Shown here: piece after piece, positions 74 to 54,513 of the stretch | Numbering within the stretch: position 1 is the first letter of the stretch | Layout: each line of letters begins with the position of its first letter | DNA from: an uncultured Bacillales bacterium | GTDB lineage: Bacteria > Bacillota_I > Bacilli_A > RFN20 > CAG-826 | Direction: 5' to 3' | Assembly: GCA_946612115.1 (NCBI GenBank) | Contig: CAMOEI010000006.1 | Span: 11,484 to 75,483 of the forward strand | Length of the DNA stretch: 64,000 nucleotides | The notes under the pieces: model-generated | The model's input: only the letters and a program-made list of their open reading frames with translations | Told to the model about the DNA's origin: nothing | The model's database searches: none | Made by a program: the position numbers and the translations under genes

Positions 74-149
74 GGGTCTGTAGCTCATCTGGGAGAGCGC
101 ATCGTTCGCAACGATGAGGTAGCCGGTTCGATCCCGGTCAGATCCACCA
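74..149 (+). tRNA. tRNA-Ala (anticodon CGC)
   Basis: 76-nt cloverleaf. Acceptor stem GGGTCTG/CAGATCC with the G3:U70 Ala identity pair. D-arm GCTC...GAGC, anticodon stem CATCG/CGATG with loop TTCGCAA (anticodon CGC at 107-109), T-arm GCCGG-TTCGATC-CCGGT, discriminator A and encoded CCA. Confidence 0.9.
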
Positions 150-253
150 GAATGAAATAAATTTGTAATTATCTAAATCTAATTATTCTAAATAGAACAA
201 AACCTTCTATCCCCAATAATTAATCCCTAGATAACTACAGCCAACAATAAAAT

Positions 254-280
254 AGATCTACTAACCATAGATCTTTTTTT
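254..280 (+). terminator. weak intrinsic terminator after the tRNA
   Basis: AGATCTA-ctaacca-TAGATCT hairpin followed by TTTTTTT. Confidence 0.45.
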
Positions 281-284
281 ATAC

Positions 285-575
285 CTTCTCACCTATACTA
301 ACCCACCTGCCCAGCCTGCCTAATATAGCTTTCATACTATCTTCAACCTGCACCTGCCACACCAGCCTTCCACCTATATCCTTATATATATAATATATAG
401 CCACCTCACCAGCCGCCCTCGCACCAGACTCATTTCAGCAAGCCAAACAAGCTCACCAGCCAGCCATTCCAGCCAGCCTAAGCAAATGCCTGCCGCCCAG
501 CTCAACTCGCCCCAGATTGGCTCCCGCAAAAAAGCTCAATTCGCCCGCTCGCAAACTCAGCCCGCCGCTGCATAA
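285..575 (+). other. CA-rich, G-poor strand-skewed non-coding tract (possible ncRNA or decayed element)
   Basis: About 290 bp made of ccagcc/caccag/ccacc motifs with almost no G on the + strand, in a ~30% GC genome. No ORF of 60 aa or more on either strand. A (TA)n stretch lies at ~383-405. Confidence 0.4.
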
Positions 576-692
576 TAATGAATGGAAGCTTTTGGCCAAA
601 ACAGAATAAATGCATCTGGCCAGGCACAAAATTGTCGATGGATAAACTCATTCATTCGACTTTGCATAAAAGACATCATCCAGTAAGATTAG

Positions 693-719
693 CAGCCTTC
701 GGGTTGCTTTTCTTTTGGT
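693..719 (+). terminator. intrinsic terminator-like hairpin
   Basis: GCAGCC-TTCG-GGTTGC (UUCG tetraloop, one G-U pair) followed by TTTTCTTTTGG. Confidence 0.45.
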
Positions 720-773
720 CCACGGGGTACTTTCGGGCGAGCTGTGGCTGTATTTGTCACTTGTGGAGAGACG

Positions 774-936
774 TATAATGCATGGGCCGTATTGTATAGT
801 ATTGGCGTAAGGTGCGAAGCCATTACTTTGTAAAACTTCTACTTAACTCTTCAACTTTCTAAAAAACTCGCACCTTATAAACATCTACGAAGGCCGTCTG
901 TTCATTCTGTTCTCAGGCGGTTTTCTTTTTTTGTGT
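774..936 (+). ncRNA. candidate small RNA (about 150 nt)
   Basis: Perfect TATAAT at 774-779 (weak -35). Long-range 9-bp stem AAGGTGCGA (809-817) / TCGCACCTT (868-876). Intrinsic terminator CCGTCTG-loop-CAGGCGG plus a T-run at 892-936. No coding potential with an RBS. Confidence 0.3.
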
Positions 937-999
937 TTTTTTGTTCGATCATCAGCGTGAACACGACATAATACGAATAGAGACTTTTATGCAAAACAA

Positions 1000-1112
1000 G
1001 ATGGATGAGTTTGTGTAACTACATAAATTGTCGTTGTCCAAAGTCACTTATTCAAAATTGGACAAAAAGACTTATCCAGAATAGATTAGGCCTCTTTAGA
1101 GGTCTTTCTTGT
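1000..1112 (+). repeat. repeated ~115-bp element, copy A (palindrome plus terminator)
   Basis: Near-identical to 3073-3187. Contains the inverted repeat TTGTCCAA (1034-1041) / TTGGACAA (1058-1065) and a terminator AGGCCUC-UUUA-GAGGUCU with a U-tract (1088-1112). Confidence 0.7.
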
Positions 1113-1195
1113 AATTGAGTGCATAAAAACTGTGAGAAGCATTTGATTTACTGCATATAAAACGATAAAATATATGCAGAAAGTGAATTGATGTT

Positions 1196-2251
1196 ATGCA
1201 TAAATATACTTACGAATTTTTAAAAGATAAAACAATTACTTCCAATCTTTTTTCTTTATCAAATATCATTACGGATTTAAAAAGCAAAACAGATGAAAAA
1301 AAAGATTCAAACAAATCACTTTTTTCTAAGTTAGAAACGATCGCTATTAAAGAATCCGTTGAAGGCAGCAACGCTATTGAAGGTATTTTTACGACTGATC
1401 AAAGAATCAAGGAGATTATTGAAAATAATAGTGAACCATTAACTCATAATGAAGAAGAGATTGCTGGCTACCACGACGCTATTAAATTTGTAAAAGAGAA
1501 TTATGAGCATCTTTCCTTTAATGAAGAGACAATTAAAAGAATACACGCCATGCTTGTTTCTAGACATATTGGATACGATAGAGGCGGACAATATAAAACT
1601 AGTGACAACGTAATTGCTGAAAAGAATAATAATGGAACAATTAAACGTGTTATTTTTGTTCCAACCAAAGCAAGTGAAACCGAAAAAGCGATGAGTGATT
1701 TGTGTTTAGCTTATCAAGTTTATAGAGACGATTATGATATTCCTGCGCTTTTATTAATCCCGTGTGTAATTGTGGATTTCCTTTCCATTCACCCATTTAG
1801 CGATGGTAATGGTCGTGTTTCTAGACTCTTAACGTTATTGCTCCTTTATAAAGAAGGCTATGATATTGGCAAATATATATCATTTGAAAATCAAATCAAT
1901 AAATACAAAAGTAATTATTATGATGTTTTAGAAAGAAGCCAAAATCATTGGCATGAATCTAAAAACACATATTACCCATTCATAGAATTTACATTTCAGA
2001 TTCTTTATCAATGTTATAAAGAGATTAATAGAAGATTTATTAAAACCAAAAGTGGAAAAGATAAAAAGAACGAGCGAATTGAGGCTATTGTTTTAGATAG
2101 TATAGTTCCAATTTCTAAAGCCGATATTCAAGAGTTACTACCTGATGTTTCAGTGACCACAATTGAGGCTGTTTTAGCAAAGTTAATCAAAGAAAACAAA
2201 ATATATAAAATTGGAACTTTTAAAAACGCTAAATATTTAAAGAATAAATAG
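1196..2251 (+). CDS. Fic family protein (class II, putative AMP-transferase)
   Basis: Canonical Fic motif HPFSDGNGRVSRLL. N-terminal inhibitory-helix motif SNAIEG matches (S/T)xxxE(G/N). C-terminal winged-helix-like tail. Confidence 0.9.
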   Translation: MHKYTYEFLKDKTITSNLFSLSNIITDLKSKTDEKKDSNKSLFSKLETIAIKESVEGSNAIEGIFTTDQRIKEIIENNSEPLTHNEEEIAGYHDAIKFVKENYEHLSFNEETIKRIHAMLVSRHIGYDRGGQYKTSDNVIAEKNNNGTIKRVIFVPTKASETEKAMSDLCLAYQVYRDDYDIPALLLIPCVIVDFLSIHPFSDGNGRVSRLLTLLLLYKEGYDIGKYISFENQINKYKSNYYDVLERSQNHWHESKNTYYPFIEFTFQILYQCYKEINRRFIKTKSGKDKKNERIEAIVLDSIVPISKADIQELLPDVSVTTIEAVLAKLIKENKIYKIGTFKNAKYLKNK

Positions 2252-2360
2252 AATAAATTTCTACTTTTAGTTGGTTTTGTTTCTCCCTAGGCAACTCAAC
2301 TAACGGTATGTATATTTTCTAATTACTAAATTCTAAAGTATAAGCGAAGGAGGAAAGATT

Positions 2361-2981
2361 ATGGACTCAATCAAAATTGGAAAGTTTATTGCTGAGAAAA
2401 GAAAAGCGAAAAACTTAACGCAACTACAATTAGCGGAACGCTTATACGTCACTGATCGCGCAGTATCTAAATGGGAATGTGGTAGAAGTTTACCAGACTC
2501 ATCAATCATGTTAGAACTATGCGAAGCGCTTGATATCAGCGTTAATGAATTATTAACTGGGGAGGTATTAGAAATGGAAACATATAACAAACAAGCAGAA
2601 GAAAACCTAATTCAAATGATTAAAGAAAAAGAAGAATCAGACAAAAGACTTCTTAATCTAAAAATAGTGTTAGGCATCACTGGAACTTTGTTCTTATTAG
2701 CGATGCTGTTTACTGGAATATTAGGTTATCAATATTTAGGATTACCATTATGGGCGATGATTCTAATGGTGTCAGTGGGTTTTGTTGTCTTTATGGTTGC
2801 AATATTATTCTGTGTGCTTATTGAGCAAAAAGCCGGATATTATGAATGCAAAGAATGCCATCAAACATTTGTTCCTACTTATTTACAAGTATTATTCGCT
2901 CCACACATCAATAGAACAAGATATATGAAATGCCCACATTGTGGCAAAAGAGCGTACCAAAAGAAAGTGATATCAAAATAG
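2361..2981 (+). CDS. XRE-family HTH regulator fused to a transmembrane region and a C-terminal Cys4 zinc ribbon
   Basis: N-terminal HTH (LTQLQLAERLYVTDRAVSKWECGRSLP), two or three hydrophobic helices, and a C-terminal CKECH...CPHCG motif. RBS GGAGGAAAG precedes the ATG. Confidence 0.8.
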   Translation: MDSIKIGKFIAEKRKAKNLTQLQLAERLYVTDRAVSKWECGRSLPDSSIMLELCEALDISVNELLTGEVLEMETYNKQAEENLIQMIKEKEESDKRLLNLKIVLGITGTLFLLAMLFTGILGYQYLGLPLWAMILMVSVGFVVFMVAILFCVLIEQKAGYYECKECHQTFVPTYLQVLFAPHINRTRYMKCPHCGKRAYQKKVISK

Positions 2982-2985
2982 AAAA

Positions 2986-3013
2986 CAGCCGAGTGAAATA
3001 TCTCGGTTTTTTC
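2986..3013 (+). terminator. intrinsic terminator of the XRE gene
   Basis: AGCCGAG-loop-CTCGGTT hairpin plus a T-run. Confidence 0.6.
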
Positions 3014-3072
3014 TTATTCGCGAATAGGCTTTAACACGACAAAATATGGATAGGTAGATTTAGACAAAAGTG

Positions 3073-3187
3073 GATGGATGAGTTTGTACAACTACAAAAA
3101 ATGTCGTTGTCCAAAGTCACTTATTCAAAATTGGACAAAATGACTTATCCAGCATAGATTAGGCCTCTACGGAGGTCTTTTCTTGTG
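3073..3187 (+). repeat. repeated ~115-bp element, copy B
   Basis: Matches 1000-1112 apart from a few substitutions. Palindrome TTGTCCAA (3107-3114) / TTGGACAA (3131-3138). Terminator AGGCCUC-UACG-GAGGUCU plus a U-tract at 3161-3187. Confidence 0.7.
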
Positions 3188-3189
3188 TC

Positions 3190-3239
3190 TCGAACTCGCT
3201 ACCCCCTCGTGCGAACGAAGCTTCTCCCAACTGAGCTAA
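3190..3239 (-). pseudogene. truncated tRNA-like fragment (D-arm and anticodon-arm region)
   Basis: The reverse complement TTAGCTCAGTTGGGAGAAGCTTCGTTCGCACGAGGGGGTAGCGAGTTCGAG aligns with the tRNA-Ala at 74-149 (TAGCTCA..TGGGAGA, TCGTTCGCA anticodon-loop region, GGTAGC..GTTCGA T-arm start). It lacks an acceptor stem and a proper T-stem. Confidence 0.5.
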
Positions 3240-3312
3240 TGTCTCTTCGGTGGGGACAAAAGTTAGTAAAAAAAGTTCCATAATAAGCCTGCAAAAATCA
3301 AAGGAGCACATT

Positions 3313-3525
3313 ATGGCAAACTACTTACAACTTAAACAACAATTCAACTCAAACAAAAAATTCATTAAACAAGTTTTAAATGATCAAAAATGTCAACTCA
3401 GATTACAAGCTGAAGGTCTTTCAACATTAAATAATTTAATTAATCAAACTACTCAAAAACTTACTTCACTTCCAAAGTATGACAACTGTGAATATTCCTA
3501 TATCTTCTTTAATAATAAAACATAA
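3313..3525 (+). CDS. small hypothetical protein (70 aa, Q/N/K-rich)
   Basis: RBS AAGGAG (3301-3306) 6 nt before the ATG at 3313. Followed by a strong hairpin terminator at 3540-3566. In the same frame as the longer 3250 ORF in the track. Confidence 0.4.
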   Translation: MANYLQLKQQFNSNKKFIKQVLNDQKCQLRLQAEGLSTLNNLINQTTQKLTSLPKYDNCEYSYIFFNNKT

Positions 3526-3539
3526 ACACGAACAAAAAA

Positions 3540-3566
3540 GAACCGGATAATCGGTTCTCTACTTTT
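3540..3566. terminator. bidirectional intrinsic terminator
   Basis: GAACCG-gataat-CGGTTC hairpin flanked by an A-run upstream and a T-rich stretch downstream. Serves the convergent genes at 3313-3525 and 3591-3884. Confidence 0.55.
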
Positions 3567-3590
3567 GACGTTAAATATATTTAATGACGA

Positions 3591-3884
3591 TTATTTAGCA
3601 TCAACACTCCATTGGTATCCACATTTTCTGCATGTATTGTGGTACCAATTTTTATCATTGCTTTGATAATATCTGCTTTCAATATCATTGCTTTTACATT
3701 GTGGGCAAATAAAGTCTGATGTGATTGTGCAAGCACCACCACTAACCGCAGCTAATTGTTCATCGGAAAGTTCAATACCTTCAGACTTAGCTAAAGATAA
3801 GAGTTCTTCACTGTTTTTGCAGGCTTTAACTTTTCTAACTTGTTCTTCAGTTAATCCTTTAAGCAAATCTTTTTTCATATTCAA
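3591..3884 (-). CDS. Nif11-type double-glycine leader peptide precursor with Cys-rich zinc-ribbon-like core (paralogue 1)
   Basis: Leader MNMKKDLLKGLTEEQVRKVKACKNSEELLSLAKSEGIELSDEQLAAVSGG. Core ACTITSDFICPQCKSNDIESRYYQSNDKNWYHNTCRKCGYQWSVDAK. RBS AAAGGAGAA. Conserved operator at 3919-3938. Confidence 0.8.
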   Translation of the reverse strand: MNMKKDLLKGLTEEQVRKVKACKNSEELLSLAKSEGIELSDEQLAAVSGGACTITSDFICPQCKSNDIESRYYQSNDKNWYHNTCRKCGYQWSVDAK

Positions 3885-3938: not shown

Positions 3939-4127
3939 GGCACTTAGAGAGAAAGCTAGTAAGCCAATGAGTGGTAATAATAATCTTTTTTTTCATAATA
4001 ATAAACCCTGTTTTTTTCTTTCTAACATTATATTTTATTTACTAATAAAAACCTAACATTTAAGAAATTAACTATAGTTTTCCTATTTATAACTTAGATT
4101 GTACAAATAGTTATGAATAAATATGTA

Positions 4128-4355: not shown

Positions 4356-6833
4356 ATGAAAAAAACAATTGTTAAAAATGCTTCGTTATCCCTTGTTTGC
4401 TTACTAGGCGTAGGTGGACTTGTTGGACTTTCAAAATATTCTAGAAATATTGCCCAAGTTCGTGCGATAGGTGAAATTGATCTCTCCACATTAGACAGTG
4501 ACTACACTGCACATGATGGTGAAACATTAACAGGCACCATGACTGAGCATCATAAGATTTCTATTGAAGATGGAGCGACAGTTACACTACAAGATGTAAA
4601 CATAAATCTATATAGTTATAGTGACAATGATCACGAATATGCCGGAATAGAATTATTAGGAGACGGAAAACTTATTTTAAGTGGCAATAATGTTGTTTCG
4701 ACACATCATTCTAATTATGCCGCCATTTTCGTACCTAACAATAAGACAATTACAATTGATGCAGTTGATGATACTGCATCTTTAGAGTTAAACGCCACAG
4801 ATTCTCCTTACGAACACGCTTACGGCTCATGCGGTGCAGGCATTGGCGCTAATGCTACAACACCTTGCGGAAATATTATCATTGAAAAAGGCATCATTAA
4901 TGCTTATACCTGCCATGGAGCAGGGATAGGTGCCGGTGGGTTTTATGGCGGCGATTGTGGTTCTATAACCATTAACGGAGGAACTATAACATCTTATGGT
5001 GATGCTGGTGGCGGAATTGGTGGCACCGATACAGCTTCTGTCGGTAATATTACTATTAATGGAGGAAATGTCACCGCTATCAGTAACCATTATTCAGCCG
5101 GTATTGGCGGAGGAAAAGGTAATAATTGCGGAGATATTCTTATCACAGGTGGTATTGTAACCGCCACTGGTAATGGAGCATTTCCTGGCATTGGTGGTGG
5201 CGCATCTTGTGGAAACATCACCATTATGGACACTGTTGCTCTAGTTACCGCAACTAAGGGTCAAACTTCCATGTATAGTGTTGGGCCATCCGTAATGACT
5301 GACGATACTTGCGGAACCATTACTATTGGAGGAGAGGTTACAGAACCTATAACTACAAATCCTTTTGTTTACCCAATACATCACACTCATGATTGGTCGT
5401 ATACTGCAAGCGGCGCTTCTATTACTGCTGAATGTGCTAGCGCAGATTGTCCAGTTACTTCTGGTTTAACACTCACTTTAGTGGCACCTACTAATTTAGT
5501 TTATGATGGAACAGCAAAAACCGCTTCCTTCCAAACAGGTTATGATGCATCTGCTTTTAAAGATGCAACTATTGTTTATAAGAAAGACGGCGTTTCTGTC
5601 TCTCAATGTATTGACGCAGGAACTTATGAAGCTAGTGTAACTGTTGGAGGAGCAACCGCAAAACTTCAATTTGAAATTACTCAAGCTACTCCAACTGGAT
5701 ATGATGTCCCTACTGGTTTAGTGGCAACTTATGGAAATACTCTTTCTAGTGTTACTCTACCAGAACACTGGTCTTGGAAAAACCCTACTGATAAAGTCGG
5801 TAATGCAGGTGAAAGAACTCATGTAGCAATCTATACTCCAACCAATCCTAACTATCATTCAGTAGAAGAAAATGTAACCATTGATGTTGCAAAAGCAAAT
5901 CCAACTTATGAAGCACCAACCATTGATGCACCTTATAATGTTGATTTATCAACAGTTGGACTTCCAGAAGGATTCTCCTGGATGGATGGAAGCCAAAAGA
6001 CATCAACTTGGGGAGAAAACACCTTTAAAGCTAAATATACTCCAAGCGATACAGTTAACTACAACATAGTTGACAACATTGACATCAAAGTTAATGTTAA
6101 ATGGATTTTAGTAGATCCAACTGAAGGTGATGTTAGTGTTACTATTAGTGGTAGTGATAGTGAATTTACAGTTGATATCTCTGTTAAGGTTGAAGTTAAC
6201 ACTGAAGTTACTGTTGAACAAAAACGTAGTGAATACTCGGATATCGGTCGTAGATATATCAAACCAGATGAAGATATTAGCGAAATCTATTCTGTTAAGT
6301 TAATTAAGAAAGTTGGAACAACTGAAACTGAAATTCAACCTTCTGATATCAAAGAAGGAACAAAGATTATTGTTTCTATGCCTGTTCCTACCGAACTTGT
6401 TGGTCAACAATTTAGGTTACTTGAAATATTTAACTCTTCCGAGGCTAAAGAATTCAGTAATACTGAATATGCGATTACTGGTGACGGCAAAACCTTAATG
6501 GTAGAAATTGATCGTATGGGTGAATTTGCCTTTATCATTCACACTGACAGTGATAATGGATTCGTCTATACAACACCTGGGGGAGGAATTCCTGCAGTCG
6601 CGGTTGTCTTCATTGTCTTAGGTGCTATCCTTTTAGTCCTTGTTGGCGCATGGGCATTAATGATGTTTGTCTTCAATAAATGGATTAGAAGAGAAGATAA
6701 GGCTATTAGAGTATTCAAACTCTTTGGTATTAAGAAAGATGATAAATTCTTAGTTGTTTCATTCCCAGTTAAGTTTGAATACAAACTAGATAATGAAATC
6801 TTCAACACCAAGGAAGAAGCTCTTAAAGAATAA
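4356..6833 (+). CDS. surface-anchored beta-helix repeat protein (signal peptide, Gly-rich GxGAGIGG / GNITINGG repeats, C-terminal TM anchor)
   Basis: RBS AAAGGTGG precedes the ATG at 4356 (the track starts at a GTG at 4344). N-terminal signal peptide. Repeated xGxITINGGxVTA beta-helix-like units. C-terminal hydrophobic helix followed by a basic tail. Confidence 0.65.
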   Translation: MKKTIVKNASLSLVCLLGVGGLVGLSKYSRNIAQVRAIGEIDLSTLDSDYTAHDGETLTGTMTEHHKISIEDGATVTLQDVNINLYSYSDNDHEYAGIELLGDGKLILSGNNVVSTHHSNYAAIFVPNNKTITIDAVDDTASLELNATDSPYEHAYGSCGAGIGANATTPCGNIIIEKGIINAYTCHGAGIGAGGFYGGDCGSITINGGTITSYGDAGGGIGGTDTASVGNITINGGNVTAISNHYSAGIGGGKGNNCGDILITGGIVTATGNGAFPGIGGGASCGNITIMDTVALVTATKGQTSMYSVGPSVMTDDTCGTITIGGEVTEPITTNPFVYPIHHTHDWSYTASGASITAECASADCPVTSGLTLTLVAPTNLVYDGTAKTASFQTGYDASAFKDATIVYKKDGVSVSQCIDAGTYEASVTVGGATAKLQFEITQATPTGYDVPTGLVATYGNTLSSVTLPEHWSWKNPTDKVGNAGERTHVAIYTPTNPNYHSVEENVTIDVAKANPTYEAPTIDAPYNVDLSTVGLPEGFSWMDGSQKTSTWGENTFKAKYTPSDTVNYNIVDNIDIKVNVKWILVDPTEGDVSVTISGSDSEFTVDISVKVEVNTEVTVEQKRSEYSDIGRRYIKPDEDISEIYSVKLIKKVGTTETEIQPSDIKEGTKIIVSMPVPTELVGQQFRLLEIFNSSEAKEFSNTEYAITGDGKTLMVEIDRMGEFAFIIHTDSDNGFVYTTPGGGIPAVAVVFIVLGAILLVLVGAWALMMFVFNKWIRREDKAIRVFKLFGIKKDDKFLVVSFPVKFEYKLDNEIFNTKEEALKE

Positions 6834-8265: not shown

Positions 8266-8542
8266 GCGAAAAAAAGCTGGTGTGATTGCAACCATCGTTA
8301 AAGAGACTAAAACAACTGAGATTGAGATAAATCTTTTCATGAAGGTCTCTATTATACTTTATAAATCCTATATAAAAATAAATAAAAAAATTTAACGAAT
8401 TAAAAATGCCTTTCTCTAAAGAGAAAATGATTTTGGAAAAAAATAAAAAAATTAGTTTTTTTAGACTATAAAAAAATTAACTATCAAAAGCAGAGAAACT
8501 AGTTTATTATTTAAATAGAAATAATATTTTGGAGGTAATCCA

Positions 8543-48029: not shown

Positions 48030-48052
48030 TAAATTTATTATTAAAGCAATCA

Positions 48053-48080
48053 GGCCTCTTCGGAGGTCTTTTCTTGTACC
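48053..48080 (+). terminator. intrinsic terminator (third copy of the AGGCCUC-loop-GAGGUCU terminator module)
   Basis: caGGCCTCTTCGGAGGTCTTTTCTTGT matches 26 of 27 positions with the terminators of the repeated elements at 1088-1112 and 3161-3187. Confidence 0.6.
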
Positions 48081-48230: not shown

Positions 48231-49055
48231 ATGAAAAATATTAAAGTCAAAAACATTGTTATCAGCATCACTGGAATTGGTGACGATGATTTTGTCAATC
48301 TTACTGATATAGCGAGAATTGTTAACCCAGAGTTTCCTTCTTATGTGGTTAGAAACTGGATGAGATTAAGAGCCACTATTGAATTTTTAGGAATTTGGGA
48401 GAAATTAAACAATGAATATTTTAATTTGACCGAATTCGATCAAATAAAAAATGCTTCAGGATCTAACGCATTTGTTATGACTGCTACAAAATGGGTAAAA
48501 GAAACTAACGCAATCGGAATAAAACCAAGACGTGGTAAATATAGTGAAGGCACTTTTGCTCATCGTGATATTGCGTTAGAATTTGCGTCTTGGATTTCTG
48601 CTGAAGTAAAGCTTTATATTATCAAAGAGTTCCAAAGACTAAAGATTCAAGAATCAGAACAACTTGAATGGCAAGGGAAGAGGTTGTTAACGAAGTTAAA
48701 TTATCTGATTCATACGGATGCCGTTAAGGAATATTTGGTTCCTGTTGAATTATCAAATGAACAAAAGAATTTTATTTATGCTAGTGAAGCAGATCTTTTG
48801 AATGTTGCCCTGTTTGGTAGAACTGCAAAAGAGTGGAGAGATACGAACATAGGCAAAGAAGGCAATATACGAGATTACGCAAATACTATTGAATTAGCGA
48901 TTCTTAGTAACCTTGAATATTTGAATTCAATGCTAATTACGCAAAAACTATCACAACAAGAAAGGCTAGTTATTCTTAATAAAGAAGCAAATAGAGAAAA
49001 AGAACTATTCAATAAGAATAGTGTTAAACCAATTAAGATGATTGAAAAGAAGTAA
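48231..49055 (+). CDS. KilA-N domain protein (phage-associated DNA-binding family)
   Basis: FVNLTDIARIVNPEFPSYVVRNWMRLRATIEFLGIWEKLNN matches the KilA-N signature (...NW.R...T.EFLG.WE..NN). Confidence 0.5.
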   Translation: MKNIKVKNIVISITGIGDDDFVNLTDIARIVNPEFPSYVVRNWMRLRATIEFLGIWEKLNNEYFNLTEFDQIKNASGSNAFVMTATKWVKETNAIGIKPRRGKYSEGTFAHRDIALEFASWISAEVKLYIIKEFQRLKIQESEQLEWQGKRLLTKLNYLIHTDAVKEYLVPVELSNEQKNFIYASEADLLNVALFGRTAKEWRDTNIGKEGNIRDYANTIELAILSNLEYLNSMLITQKLSQQERLVILNKEANREKELFNKNSVKPIKMIEKK

Positions 49056-53781: not shown

Positions 53782-53800
53782 TGTGACACATTTGTGGCAA
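53782..53800 (+). promoter_or_regulatory. conserved direct-repeat operator TGTGACACA-TT-TGTGGCAA (copy 3)
   Basis: ~40 bp upstream of the ATG at 53842. Confidence 0.6.
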
Positions 53801-53841
53801 TAAAGATGTTAAATTATGTTTACCAAAGGAGAACTTTGAAT

Positions 53842-54123
53842 ATGAAACAAGAATTATTAAAAGGATTAAGCGAAGAACAAATCGCTAAAATTAAATCGTG
53901 TAAGAACAGTGAAGATTTACTTTCCTTAGCAAAAGTTGAAGGAGTAGAACTTACTGATGAACAACTTTCCGCGATCAGTGGAGGAGGATGTTTCTCGACG
54001 ATTAAATGTCCAAAATGTGGATGTACAAAGCATTATAAAGAAGAAAAGTATGTTGGAACAGCTGGAGCCTCTACAATAACAACTTATACTTGTAAAGATT
54101 GCGGATATAAGTGGATCGAATAA
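53842..54123 (+). CDS. Nif11-type double-glycine leader peptide precursor with Cys-rich core (paralogue 3)
   Basis: Start at the internal ATG 53842, which has RBS AAAGGAGAA (the track ORF starts at 53794). Leader MKQELLKGLSEEQIAKIKSCKNSEDLLSLAKVEGVELTDEQLSAISGGG. Core CFSTIKCPKCGCTKHYKEEKYVGTAGASTITTYTCKDCGYKWIE. Terminator at 54143-54165. Confidence 0.8.
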   Translation: MKQELLKGLSEEQIAKIKSCKNSEDLLSLAKVEGVELTDEQLSAISGGGCFSTIKCPKCGCTKHYKEEKYVGTAGASTITTYTCKDCGYKWIE

Positions 54124-54219: not shown

Positions 54220-54513
54220 TTGAATATGAAAAAAGAATTACTTAAAGGATTAACTGAAGAACAAGTTAGAAAAGTTAAGGCCTGCAAAAATAGTGAAGAA
54301 TTATTATCTTTAGCAAAGAGCGAAGGTATTGAATTAACCGATGAACAACTCGCTGCGGTCAGTGGTGGAGGATATTGTAGAAGCACTCCAACATTCGTCT
54401 GCCCAAAATGTGGCTCAGGAAAAATCAAAACCAAATATAACGAAAACTCCATTAATGAGTGGTATAACAATACCTGCCAAGATTGTGGATTCGTTTGGAT
54501 TGTTGACGCTTAG
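54220..54513 (+). CDS. Nif11-type double-glycine leader peptide precursor with Cys-rich core (paralogue 4)
   Basis: Leader is identical to paralogue 1 except S/T and K/E changes. Core GYCRSTPTFVCPKCGSGKIKTKYNENSINEWYNNTCQDCGFVWIVDA. Terminator at 54538-54563. Confidence 0.8.
   Translation: MNMKKELLKGLTEEQVRKVKACKNSEELLSLAKSEGIELTDEQLAAVSGGGYCRSTPTFVCPKCGSGKIKTKYNENSINEWYNNTCQDCGFVWIVDA

Follow-up and report, generated by a model that had tools for sequence, protein, structure and literature searches.

We analyzed a 64,000-nucleotide stretch of the genome of an uncultured Bacillales bacterium (assembly GCA_946612115.1, contig CAMOEI010000006.1, positions 11,484 to 75,483 of the forward strand; "the window" below means this whole stretch, numbered from its first letter). 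Near its start, behind a tRNA-Ala(CGC) gene, lies a head-to-tail array that comprises a miniature element, cassettes without an open reading frame (ORF), a cassette with genes for a Fic-domain protein and an XRE-type helix-turn-helix (HTH) protein (1029-3096), and a fourth that begins at 3102 (Table 1). A preliminary description, made from the sequence alone, had presented the Fic and XRE genes as a module bracketed by two roughly 90% identical copies of an element, each with an 8-bp inverted repeat, a shared terminator with a differing loop, and no conserved ORF. Most of these observations hold. BLAST aligns copy A (1000-1095) with copy B (3073-3168) at 93.75% identity, the inverted repeat TTGTCCAA-N16-TTGGACAA is found in each copy, and a terminator scan places hairpins at 1088-1105 and 3161-3178 that have the same 7-bp stem, different loops, and a T-run after each. 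The tRNA-Ala reported upstream is recognized by both ARAGORN and Rfam. We rejected a small ORF in the element: on inspection by eye, the frame of copy A is closed by a stop after 5 codons, and by our own count from the sequence, 5 of the 6 changes that separate copy A from copy B would be non-synonymous.

The boundaries drawn for the element, in contrast, were wrong. The repeat reaches further 5′ than first noted (933-1107 versus 3006-3180, 82% identity over 175 nt), and each copy consists of the right end (RE) of one cassette, a spacer, and the left end (LE) of the adjoining one. In the window, the order at a junction is an RE ending in ...CAACTACA, a spacer of 4-5 nt, and the LE of the following cassette; the upstream part of copy A, for example, is RE_A. 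The alignments suggest that the repeated element is the junction of two neighboring cassettes and not a unit by itself. The earlier suggestion that a small cassette had been inserted, or that a mobile module had left its footprint, survives with different limits: the unit extends from the LE at 1029 to the end of the RE at 3096, and the core and terminator of the right copy are already part of the next cassette. Two members of the family had gone unnoticed, the miniature element (164-239) and a degenerate RE-LE junction (569-715).

An LE starts with 5′-TGTCG, after which come two directly adjoining 24-nt direct repeats (consensus TTGnnCAAAnTnACTTATYCAnnA) and then T2, a portable intrinsic terminator; in LE_A these are TGTCG, unit 1 (1034-1057), unit 2 (1058-1081), and T2 (1088-1105) with its T-run. 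An RE is an imperfect inverted copy of the LE repeats with the 3′ terminus ...CAACTACA, on whose inner side lie a conserved segment (TCG..AACACGACATAAT in RE_A) and a cargo terminator, T1. In alignments of related copies, the onset of conservation is sharp at TGTCG, and the RE arm stops at ...CAACTACA, with 2-8 variable nt before the next TGTCG. The window's four LE cores and the reverse complements of its three RE arms form one collinear alignment (71% mean column identity) in which TGT is invariant, and when the four 24-nt units that make up the LE and RE consensus sequences are compared, 13-18 of 24 positions agree, versus 6.8 ± 2.2 for random 24-mers. Terminal inverted repeats (TIRs) are therefore present at both ends, and those of the miniature elements are near-perfect. 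The TTGTCCAA/TTGGACAA "palindrome" is the quasi-palindromic first 8 nt (TTGnnCAA) of both direct repeats. A third 24-nt repeat in the RE (the TTCGCGAA...ACACGACA segment) was considered and found unsupported (5-8 of 24 matches).

Table 1. Features of the cassette array and its distant remnant in the window
Feature	Position	Strand	Basis
tRNA-Ala(CGC), array anchor	74..149	+	ARAGORN, Rfam
76-bp miniature element (TGTAATTATCTA...TAGATAACTACA) with two internal 24-nt units	164..239	+	aligns with other ends
Terminator-like hairpin (ATAGATCTA-loop-TAGATCT + T-run) after miniature element	252..281	+	read from sequence
Degenerate RE of ORF-less cassette	569..628	+	nhmmer RE profile 569-629, E = 3.5e−6; alignment
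Degenerate LE with own terminator (691-708)	633..715	+	reverse RE-profile match, terminator scan, alignment
RE_A, right end of preceding ORF-less cassette, ends ...AACTACA	932..1023	+	nhmmer E = 7.8e−20; alignments
Junction spacer TAAAT	1024..1028	.	read from sequence
LE_A, left end of Fic-XRE cassette	1029..1112	+	BLAST, terminator scan, alignment
Cargo gene 1, Fic-domain protein, SoFic-like	1196..2251	+	Pfam Fic E = 4.9e−16; PADLOC SoFic E = 1.5e−37
Cargo gene 2, XRE-type HTH protein	2361..2981	+	Pfam HTH_3 E = 2.8e−12
T1 cargo terminator (CCGAGTGAAATATCTCGG + T-run), inner edge of RE_B	2987..3014	+	terminator scan
RE_B, right end of Fic-XRE cassette, ends ...CAACTACA	3006..3096	+	nhmmer E = 4e−23; alignment
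Junction spacer AAAAA	3097..3101	.	read from sequence
LE_B, left end of next cassette, core of copy B; T2 at 3161-3178	3102..3187	+	BLAST, terminator scan, alignment
Inverted truncated tRNA-Ala(CGC)-like pseudogene	3189..3245	−	phage tRNA-Ala matches; related loci
orf70, 70-aa cargo ORF of LE_B cassette, no family match	3313..3525	+	homologues in L072, L065
T2-only remnant (terminator and tail without repeat units)	48052..48077	+	25/26 to copy B terminator

Related loci (L-numbers) were retrieved by a pattern scan of GTDB species representatives, which yielded 15 loci from rumen or gut metagenome-assembled genomes (MAGs) labeled "Bacilli" or "Erysipelotrichaceae," and by a looser scan of JGI metagenomes, which yielded 63 more. 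The 78 loci hold 88 copies of the element (83 unique). The element thus occurs in many genomes and contexts and is not the simple local tandem duplication that the preliminary description had allowed for. No match to it was found in curated plasmids (BLAST) or in IMG/VR (pattern scan, 0 matches), and in a phage collection BLAST matched the tRNA fragment alone.

The position of the LE relative to its upstream neighbor is regular. In 26 of 34 unique cases behind a tRNA gene, the LE starts 12-14 nt past the CCA end (14 nt for the first element of the window's array); the tRNA is usually tRNA-Ala(CGC) and rarely tRNA-Ala(GGC) or tRNA-Gly. Behind rpsR, the gene that provides the second setting, the LE starts 11 nt past the stop codon in 6 of 7 cases. 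In the third setting, to which both window copies belong, the LE follows an arm of ~95 nt that repeats the core in inverted orientation. The orientation of the LE is always that of the upstream tRNA or rpsR gene. The same cassette can occupy different settings. The orf70 cassette (LE_B, pseudo-tRNA, and orf70), which is distal in the window, shares 81-88% identity with cassettes that stand directly after rpsR in L072 and after a tRNA-Ala in L065, and the tRNA-Ala of L065 is only 75% identical to that of the window. The Fic cassette is found also at a site linked to neither a tRNA nor rpsR.

Comparisons between loci delimit LE...RE as the unit that varies. Loci L008 and L020 are 98.9-99.2% identical and differ by one 1.76-kb segment between the tRNA and a resident cassette; the segment starts with (T)TGTCGTTG, ends with CAACTACA, and has ATATT on both flanks. 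Presence and absence of a single unit at 99% flank identity, with no transposase inside, is the pattern of a miniature inverted-repeat transposable element (MITE) or mobile cassette. Across LE-Fic-RE, L015, L019, and L040 are 97-98% identical, and they are unrelated within ~13 nt beyond the RE terminus. Some arrays end with an RE alone, and in those that we read through, unrelated terminators, probably the host gene's own, follow 2-13 nt on. In 10 of 24 cassettes, the pentamer to the left of LE agrees with the one to the right of RE at ≥4 of 5 positions (permutation P ~ 5e−5), with clear duplications in L020 (ATATT), L023 (TCACA, which stands both between rpsR and LE and directly after RE), and L053 ((C)TATT). 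In the window, the junction spacer TAAAT (1024-1028) recurs at 158-162 in the linker behind the tRNA, which is what a target-site duplicate would look like. Free-standing LE-RE miniature elements of 74-76 bp with TIRs of 11-12 nt occur in the window (12 nt, 11 of 12 positions matching), in L021 (a perfect 11-bp repeat), and in L028.

The 30 cassettes that we could delimit are 0.17-2.6 kb long, and their genes nearly always read from LE to RE. The hairpin seen at T1 also precedes the RE in L003, L004, L008, and L020, where it lies behind different cargo. The homologues likewise keep a hairpin and a T-run after the LE core, with different stems that are each self-complementary (GGCCTC/GAGGTC, GTCCTC/GAGGGC, GCCGTCC/GGGCGG, and GCCGTG/GCGGC). 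Because of this conservation, we take T2 to be a genuine intrinsic terminator module of the plus strand.

We think it reasonably probable that the LE/RE units are transposon-like gene cassettes without a transposase, which carry a terminator with them and insert at specific sites behind tRNA-Ala and rpsR. Such cassettes would be non-autonomous, and a transposase acting in trans would move them by binding the 24-nt repeats of LE and RE. Insertion would be orientation-specific and at a fixed distance, 12-14 nt past the tRNA-Ala CCA or 11 nt past the rpsR stop, which would place the cassette between the host gene and its native terminator, and it would duplicate ~5 bp of the target. Repeated insertion at the same spot would push older cassettes outward and generate an array in which the junction spacers repeat the target pentamer. 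The T2 of the LE would substitute for the terminator that insertion splits off from tRNA or rpsR, and would also shield the cargo from read-through. The cargo would be accessory: SoFic-like Fic proteins, RhuM, XRE regulators, a DUF4143 ATPase, and Nif11-type secreted peptides.

Several observations weigh against this proposal. No transposase or recombinase was found in the ~30 delimited cassettes except an unrelated copy of an IS3-family insertion sequence (IS); a phmmer search for rve domains over all ORFs of the fetched DNA returned IS3 fragments only; and no mobilizing enzyme was recognized among the neighbor ORFs of the 78 loci (clustered ORFs inspected by eye and the rve-domain search). 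Flank duplication is clear in only 10 of 24 cassettes, is lacking at many others, and is seen at none of the miniature elements. The difference between L008 and L020 could be a deletion between direct LE repeats instead of an insertion. In a systematic test, LE and RE of the same cassette were no closer to each other than ends across junctions (0.6385 versus 0.6387), and because of this result the co-varying LE and RE of L020 are anecdotal. By eye, the LE looks far more conserved than the RE in loci whose scans selected for LE, and it is always accompanied by a terminator; since the loci were retrieved with LE-derived patterns, the conservation of LE and hairpin is biased upward. A constraint that acts on LE at the RNA level is conceivable.

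An autonomous element with LE/RE ends was not found in the window and the 78 loci (~0.45 Mb in total). Secondary IS3-family or IS200-like (Y1) genes do occur in or beside cassettes (L023, 3617-4878, minus strand; L048, 3142-3585, minus strand; L027, 3372-3830, minus strand; L006; and L032), and the ends of these elements are unrelated to LE/RE. We ruled out the IS3 copy in the L023 cassette as the mobilizer, given that its inverted repeats (TAAAAGTAGAC) are unrelated to LE/RE, and the IS200-like TnpA near partial REs, which is not bracketed by LE/RE. IS200/IS605 elements are not known to have TIRs or target duplications. Nor do the arrays resemble REP/BIME-REPIN sequences with a RAYT: there are few copies per contig, and the Y1 genes, present in 3 loci, are not bracketed by LE/RE.

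Co-directional arrays of small, one- or two-gene cassettes with imperfect palindromes of ~100-190 bp between them recall the attC arrays of integrons. The accessory and toxin-type cargo is typical of chromosomal integrons, the junction spacers are alike within an array, and no transposase is linked to the cassettes. RE-spacer-LE would then be an attC-like site, and an unlinked site-specific recombinase would integrate circular cassettes beside a resident LE. We regard this explanation as unlikely. As read from the sequence, GTTGTCC/AGACAAC departs from the attC core consensus GTTRRRY/RYYYAAC, and no IntI, attI, or Pc was found. No integrase-like ORF was seen by eye among the clustered neighbor ORFs or in the Pfam-scanned cargo, most locus ORFs being unscanned. 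Arrays can finish in a half-site, an RE alone with the host terminator right after it; the free-standing miniature elements have outward-facing inverted termini, and flanks are duplicated at some cassettes; the spacers differ in length (2 to 8 nt) and sequence; and first insertions behind tRNA or rpsR need no resident LE.

The preliminary description had suggested that the element could be a small RNA gene. An LE RNA would derive from the tRNA-Ala or rpsR trailer, or, in the RE-LE form, from its own promoter, with the inverted arm as a pairing partner in cis or in trans. This reading would account for the orientation of LE and for its invariable closure by an intrinsic terminator; it is also consistent with the folding of copy B (z = −6.3), with some compensatory stem changes (GCCC/GGGC and ATCT/TAGA), and with a promoter-like TCGCGA-N16-CATAAT that is conserved upstream in the RE (class-2 alignment). 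However, no Rfam family matches the element at the gathering score (the tRNA alone passes), and nothing relevant appears in 150-3600 even at E ≤ 5. The outer stem lacks covariation: positions 6-7 vary (TT, TA, and TC), while their supposed partners remain AA. Loop and tail co-vary as direct repeats and not as pairs, with variant subfamilies changing both repeats together (GATCGNCC twice, CCGATTATCCGGAA twice), and a variant with TTGGACAAA at the start of both repeats (by eye, L046) keeps the direct repeats and loses the hairpin. Moreover, the TGT and ACA termini are exactly where breakpoints lie and where the segments that are present in one locus and absent from another begin and end. A long RE-LE hairpin as a conserved RNA was ruled out, given that the RE may stand beside an LE of another subtype (L020) or alone before unrelated terminators. 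The behavior of the repeats fits the predicted protein-binding sites of a transposon end better than an RNA helix, and a small RNA as the primary role of the element is improbable.

We give similarly little credence to passive repeats. On this reading, the elements would be conserved intergenic spacers in gene families that arose by tandem duplication, and unequal crossing-over and homologous recombination would have spread them with no dedicated mobility machinery. The Nif11-peptide arrays of L003 and L004 do resemble tandem duplications of LE-gene-RE units with similar spacers, and recombination between direct LE repeats can delete or duplicate cassettes. Yet the same ends enclose unrelated cargo and stand at fixed distances behind both tRNA-Ala and rpsR, they have a terminal inverted-repeat structure and form miniature elements, and flank duplications occur at cassettes with differing neighbors. 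The remaining suggestion, an operator for the cassette-encoded XRE regulator, is highly improbable: half-site-like TTGTCCAA/TTGGACAA sequences are repeated near the HTH gene in the window, but none of the 78 element-carrying loci encodes a close homologue of the window's XRE protein, and an XRE gene is missing from most cassettes, among them the Fic-only, Nif11, and RhuM-only ones. The repeats around the Fic and XRE genes are better read as cassette boundaries than as regulatory RNA or operator.

Taken as transposon-like cassettes, the LE/RE units share features with several known systems. MIC231 of Bacillus cereus is an example of a mobile insertion cassette (MIC). As in MICs and cargo-carrying MITEs, TIRs bracket passenger genes without a transposase, miniature cargo-less forms coexist, and mobilization in trans is presumed. 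Unlike MICs, the LE/RE cassettes have no cognate autonomous IS that we could identify, their ends hold two 24-nt direct repeats and a built-in terminator, and their insertion is specific in site and orientation behind tRNA-Ala or rpsR, which gives ordered arrays.

In end architecture and targeting, the cassettes resemble Tn7 and Tn5053 (Tn402), with which they share 5′-TGT termini (here TGTNG), several subterminal repeats per end as predicted binding sites, and insertion in a single orientation at a fixed distance behind a conserved gene or tRNA; the putative target duplication of ~5 bp would be a further likeness. Like Tn7/Tn5053 islands, they have defense-gene cargo and build up in tandem at the attachment site. 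In our own comparison, the first 17 nt of LE match the IRi of Tn402 and class 1 integrons (TGTCGTTTTCAGAAGAC; PMC8248536) at 13 of 17 positions, which we treat as a lead only and not as membership. TnsD-directed homing places insertions 30-33 nt after the tRNA (PMC10293859), whereas the LE/RE cassettes lie closer (12-14 nt) and are only 0.08-2.6 kb in size. A further difference is that no tnsA/B/C or tniA/B/Q genes were found in any cassette or locus of the fetched DNA.

Tycheposons stack at tRNA genes, and SaPI-type islands are found at rpsR. Like such tyrosine-recombinase islands, the LE/RE cassettes place cargo in tandem behind a tRNA and also use rpsR 3′ ends; unlike them, they are not flanked by repeats of the tRNA 3′ end, and no integrase was found. 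Degenerate tRNA 3′ halves (...TCAGATCCACCA) are present 13 nt before the LE in L006 (~4030-4060), L007, L012, L016, and L079, and in L006 the intact tRNA-Ala lies 1.3 kb upstream. These remnants may come from a separate event of tyrosine-recombinase type, and suggest that the same tRNA is also the target of another mechanism of insertion, one of integrase type.

Targeted literature searches found no earlier description of LE/RE elements. We tentatively conjecture that they represent an undescribed family of site-specific cassette transposons with their own terminator and Tn7/Tn5053-like ends, whose non-autonomous members form integron-like arrays of defense, toxin, and secreted-peptide genes behind tRNA-Ala(CGC) or rpsR of uncultured rumen and gut Bacilli and are mobilized in trans by undiscovered targeting machinery. 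If true, low-G+C uncultured gut and rumen Bacilli would own a cassette system that does the job of Proteobacteria integrons, gathering small genes for defense, toxins, and bacteriocin-like products into ordered arrays in a safe harbor; in contrast to integrons, it would use transposon-type ends that carry their own terminator. The system would have two attachment sites that are conserved and precisely defined, profiles of LE and RE would provide a simple signature for variable defense islets in MAGs, and the arrays would point to an undiscovered site-specific transposase or target selector, a possible tool.

The cargo of the window's Fic-XRE cassette is only partly shared with its relatives. 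In translation, the Fic protein has HPFSDGNGRVSR and an N-terminal SNAIEG inhibitory motif, which fit HxFx(D/E)GNGRxxR and (S/T)xxxE(G/N), respectively, the motifs of class II Fic proteins. We label it "SoFic-like" only, because its NCBIfam equivalog score (43.6) is far below the cutoff of 550. Fic proteins 95.7-96.6% identical to it are encoded in the LE-Fic-RE cassettes of L015, L019, and L040. The second gene product has a hydrophobic central segment and a C-terminal CxxC...CxxC; the preliminary description had called it an XRE/zinc-ribbon regulator, and we confirm the Fic domain of its neighbor and its own XRE HTH domain, while the zinc ribbon yields a weak match (E = 0.007). The ~730 bp from the Fic stop to T1 that contain the XRE gene (2241-2970) have no counterpart in the 92%-identical Fic cassettes of the same three loci, and the XRE gene is an extra relative to the Fic cassettes found elsewhere. 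Other cassettes carry a second Fic type, RhuM, an XRE-hydrolase, a DUF4143 ATPase, an HTH-nucleotidyltransferase, or a GNAT protein, and many carry Nif11-like leader peptides with Cys-rich cores.

The cassette that follows Fic-XRE begins with LE_B and contains the inverted tRNA-like fragment of the preliminary description, which matches phage tRNA-Ala genes at 84% over 55 nt and recurs in related loci. Neither ARAGORN nor Rfam calls the fragment (3189-3245); it has no complete cloverleaf, being truncated in the T-loop and having a 6-nt anticodon loop. The junction of T2 and pseudogene (TCTTGTGT followed directly by CTCGAAC) recurs in ~15 loci, including rpsR-linked ones. The pseudogenes of the window and L065, the two cases that we compared base by base, share a 1-nt deletion in the anticodon loop, and longer versions in L025, L032, L074, and L027 keep the T-arm. 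A local scar or att remnant is ruled out, as the piece travels with the cassette and also occurs behind rpsR and tRNA-Ala(GGC). From its distribution, we infer that the inverted pseudogene belongs to the left portion of orf70-type cassettes. A search with the RE profile (nhmmer) found no RE for this last cassette in the window.

At the other end of the array, an AGATCT-type hairpin stands 3′ of the miniature element, as it does in L021 and L028; it may be the native tRNA-Ala terminator. Between this hairpin and the degenerate RE lies a region (282-568) with a C-rich plus strand, ~42% G+C against a background of ~33%, and no convincing ORF; a single 44-nt match is its only homology in the 78 related loci. 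Far downstream, the partial third copy of the terminator reported earlier is real (25 of 26 positions identical to the copy B terminator, E = 1e−6 within the window) and comes after the stop codon of a gene. The product of the gene past it (48231-49055) is a KilA-N protein with a match to PDC-S22, a candidate defense family of PADLOC (E = 3e−110), and terminator and gene together may be a remnant of another cassette.

In DNA that is otherwise 99% identical, L008 (~6775-6800) and L020 (~8485-8510) have ~8 differences, counted by eye, in a stretch of ~30 nt in the RE repeat unit, and the cluster looks like a gene-conversion patch between end subtypes. In L066, a group II intron (Rfam D1-D4, 2116-2375, minus strand; RVT_1 and GIIM protein, 695-1981, minus strand) lies directly downstream of T2; some bacterial group II introns target terminators. 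The commonest cassette cargo is a family of ~95-aa peptides with a Nif11-like leader (weak TIGR03798 match, E ~ 4e−4), a GG motif, and a Cys-rich, zinc-ribbon-like core, which reaches 12 tandem genes in L004 (1880-6483). The window encodes three such peptides (3591-3884, minus strand; 53794-54123 and 54220-54513, plus strand). In L003, L004, L029, L033, L061, and L075, the stretch from T2 to the genes for Nif11-type peptides contains a conserved, operator-like palindrome (TTGTGGCAC-N4-GTGACAA).

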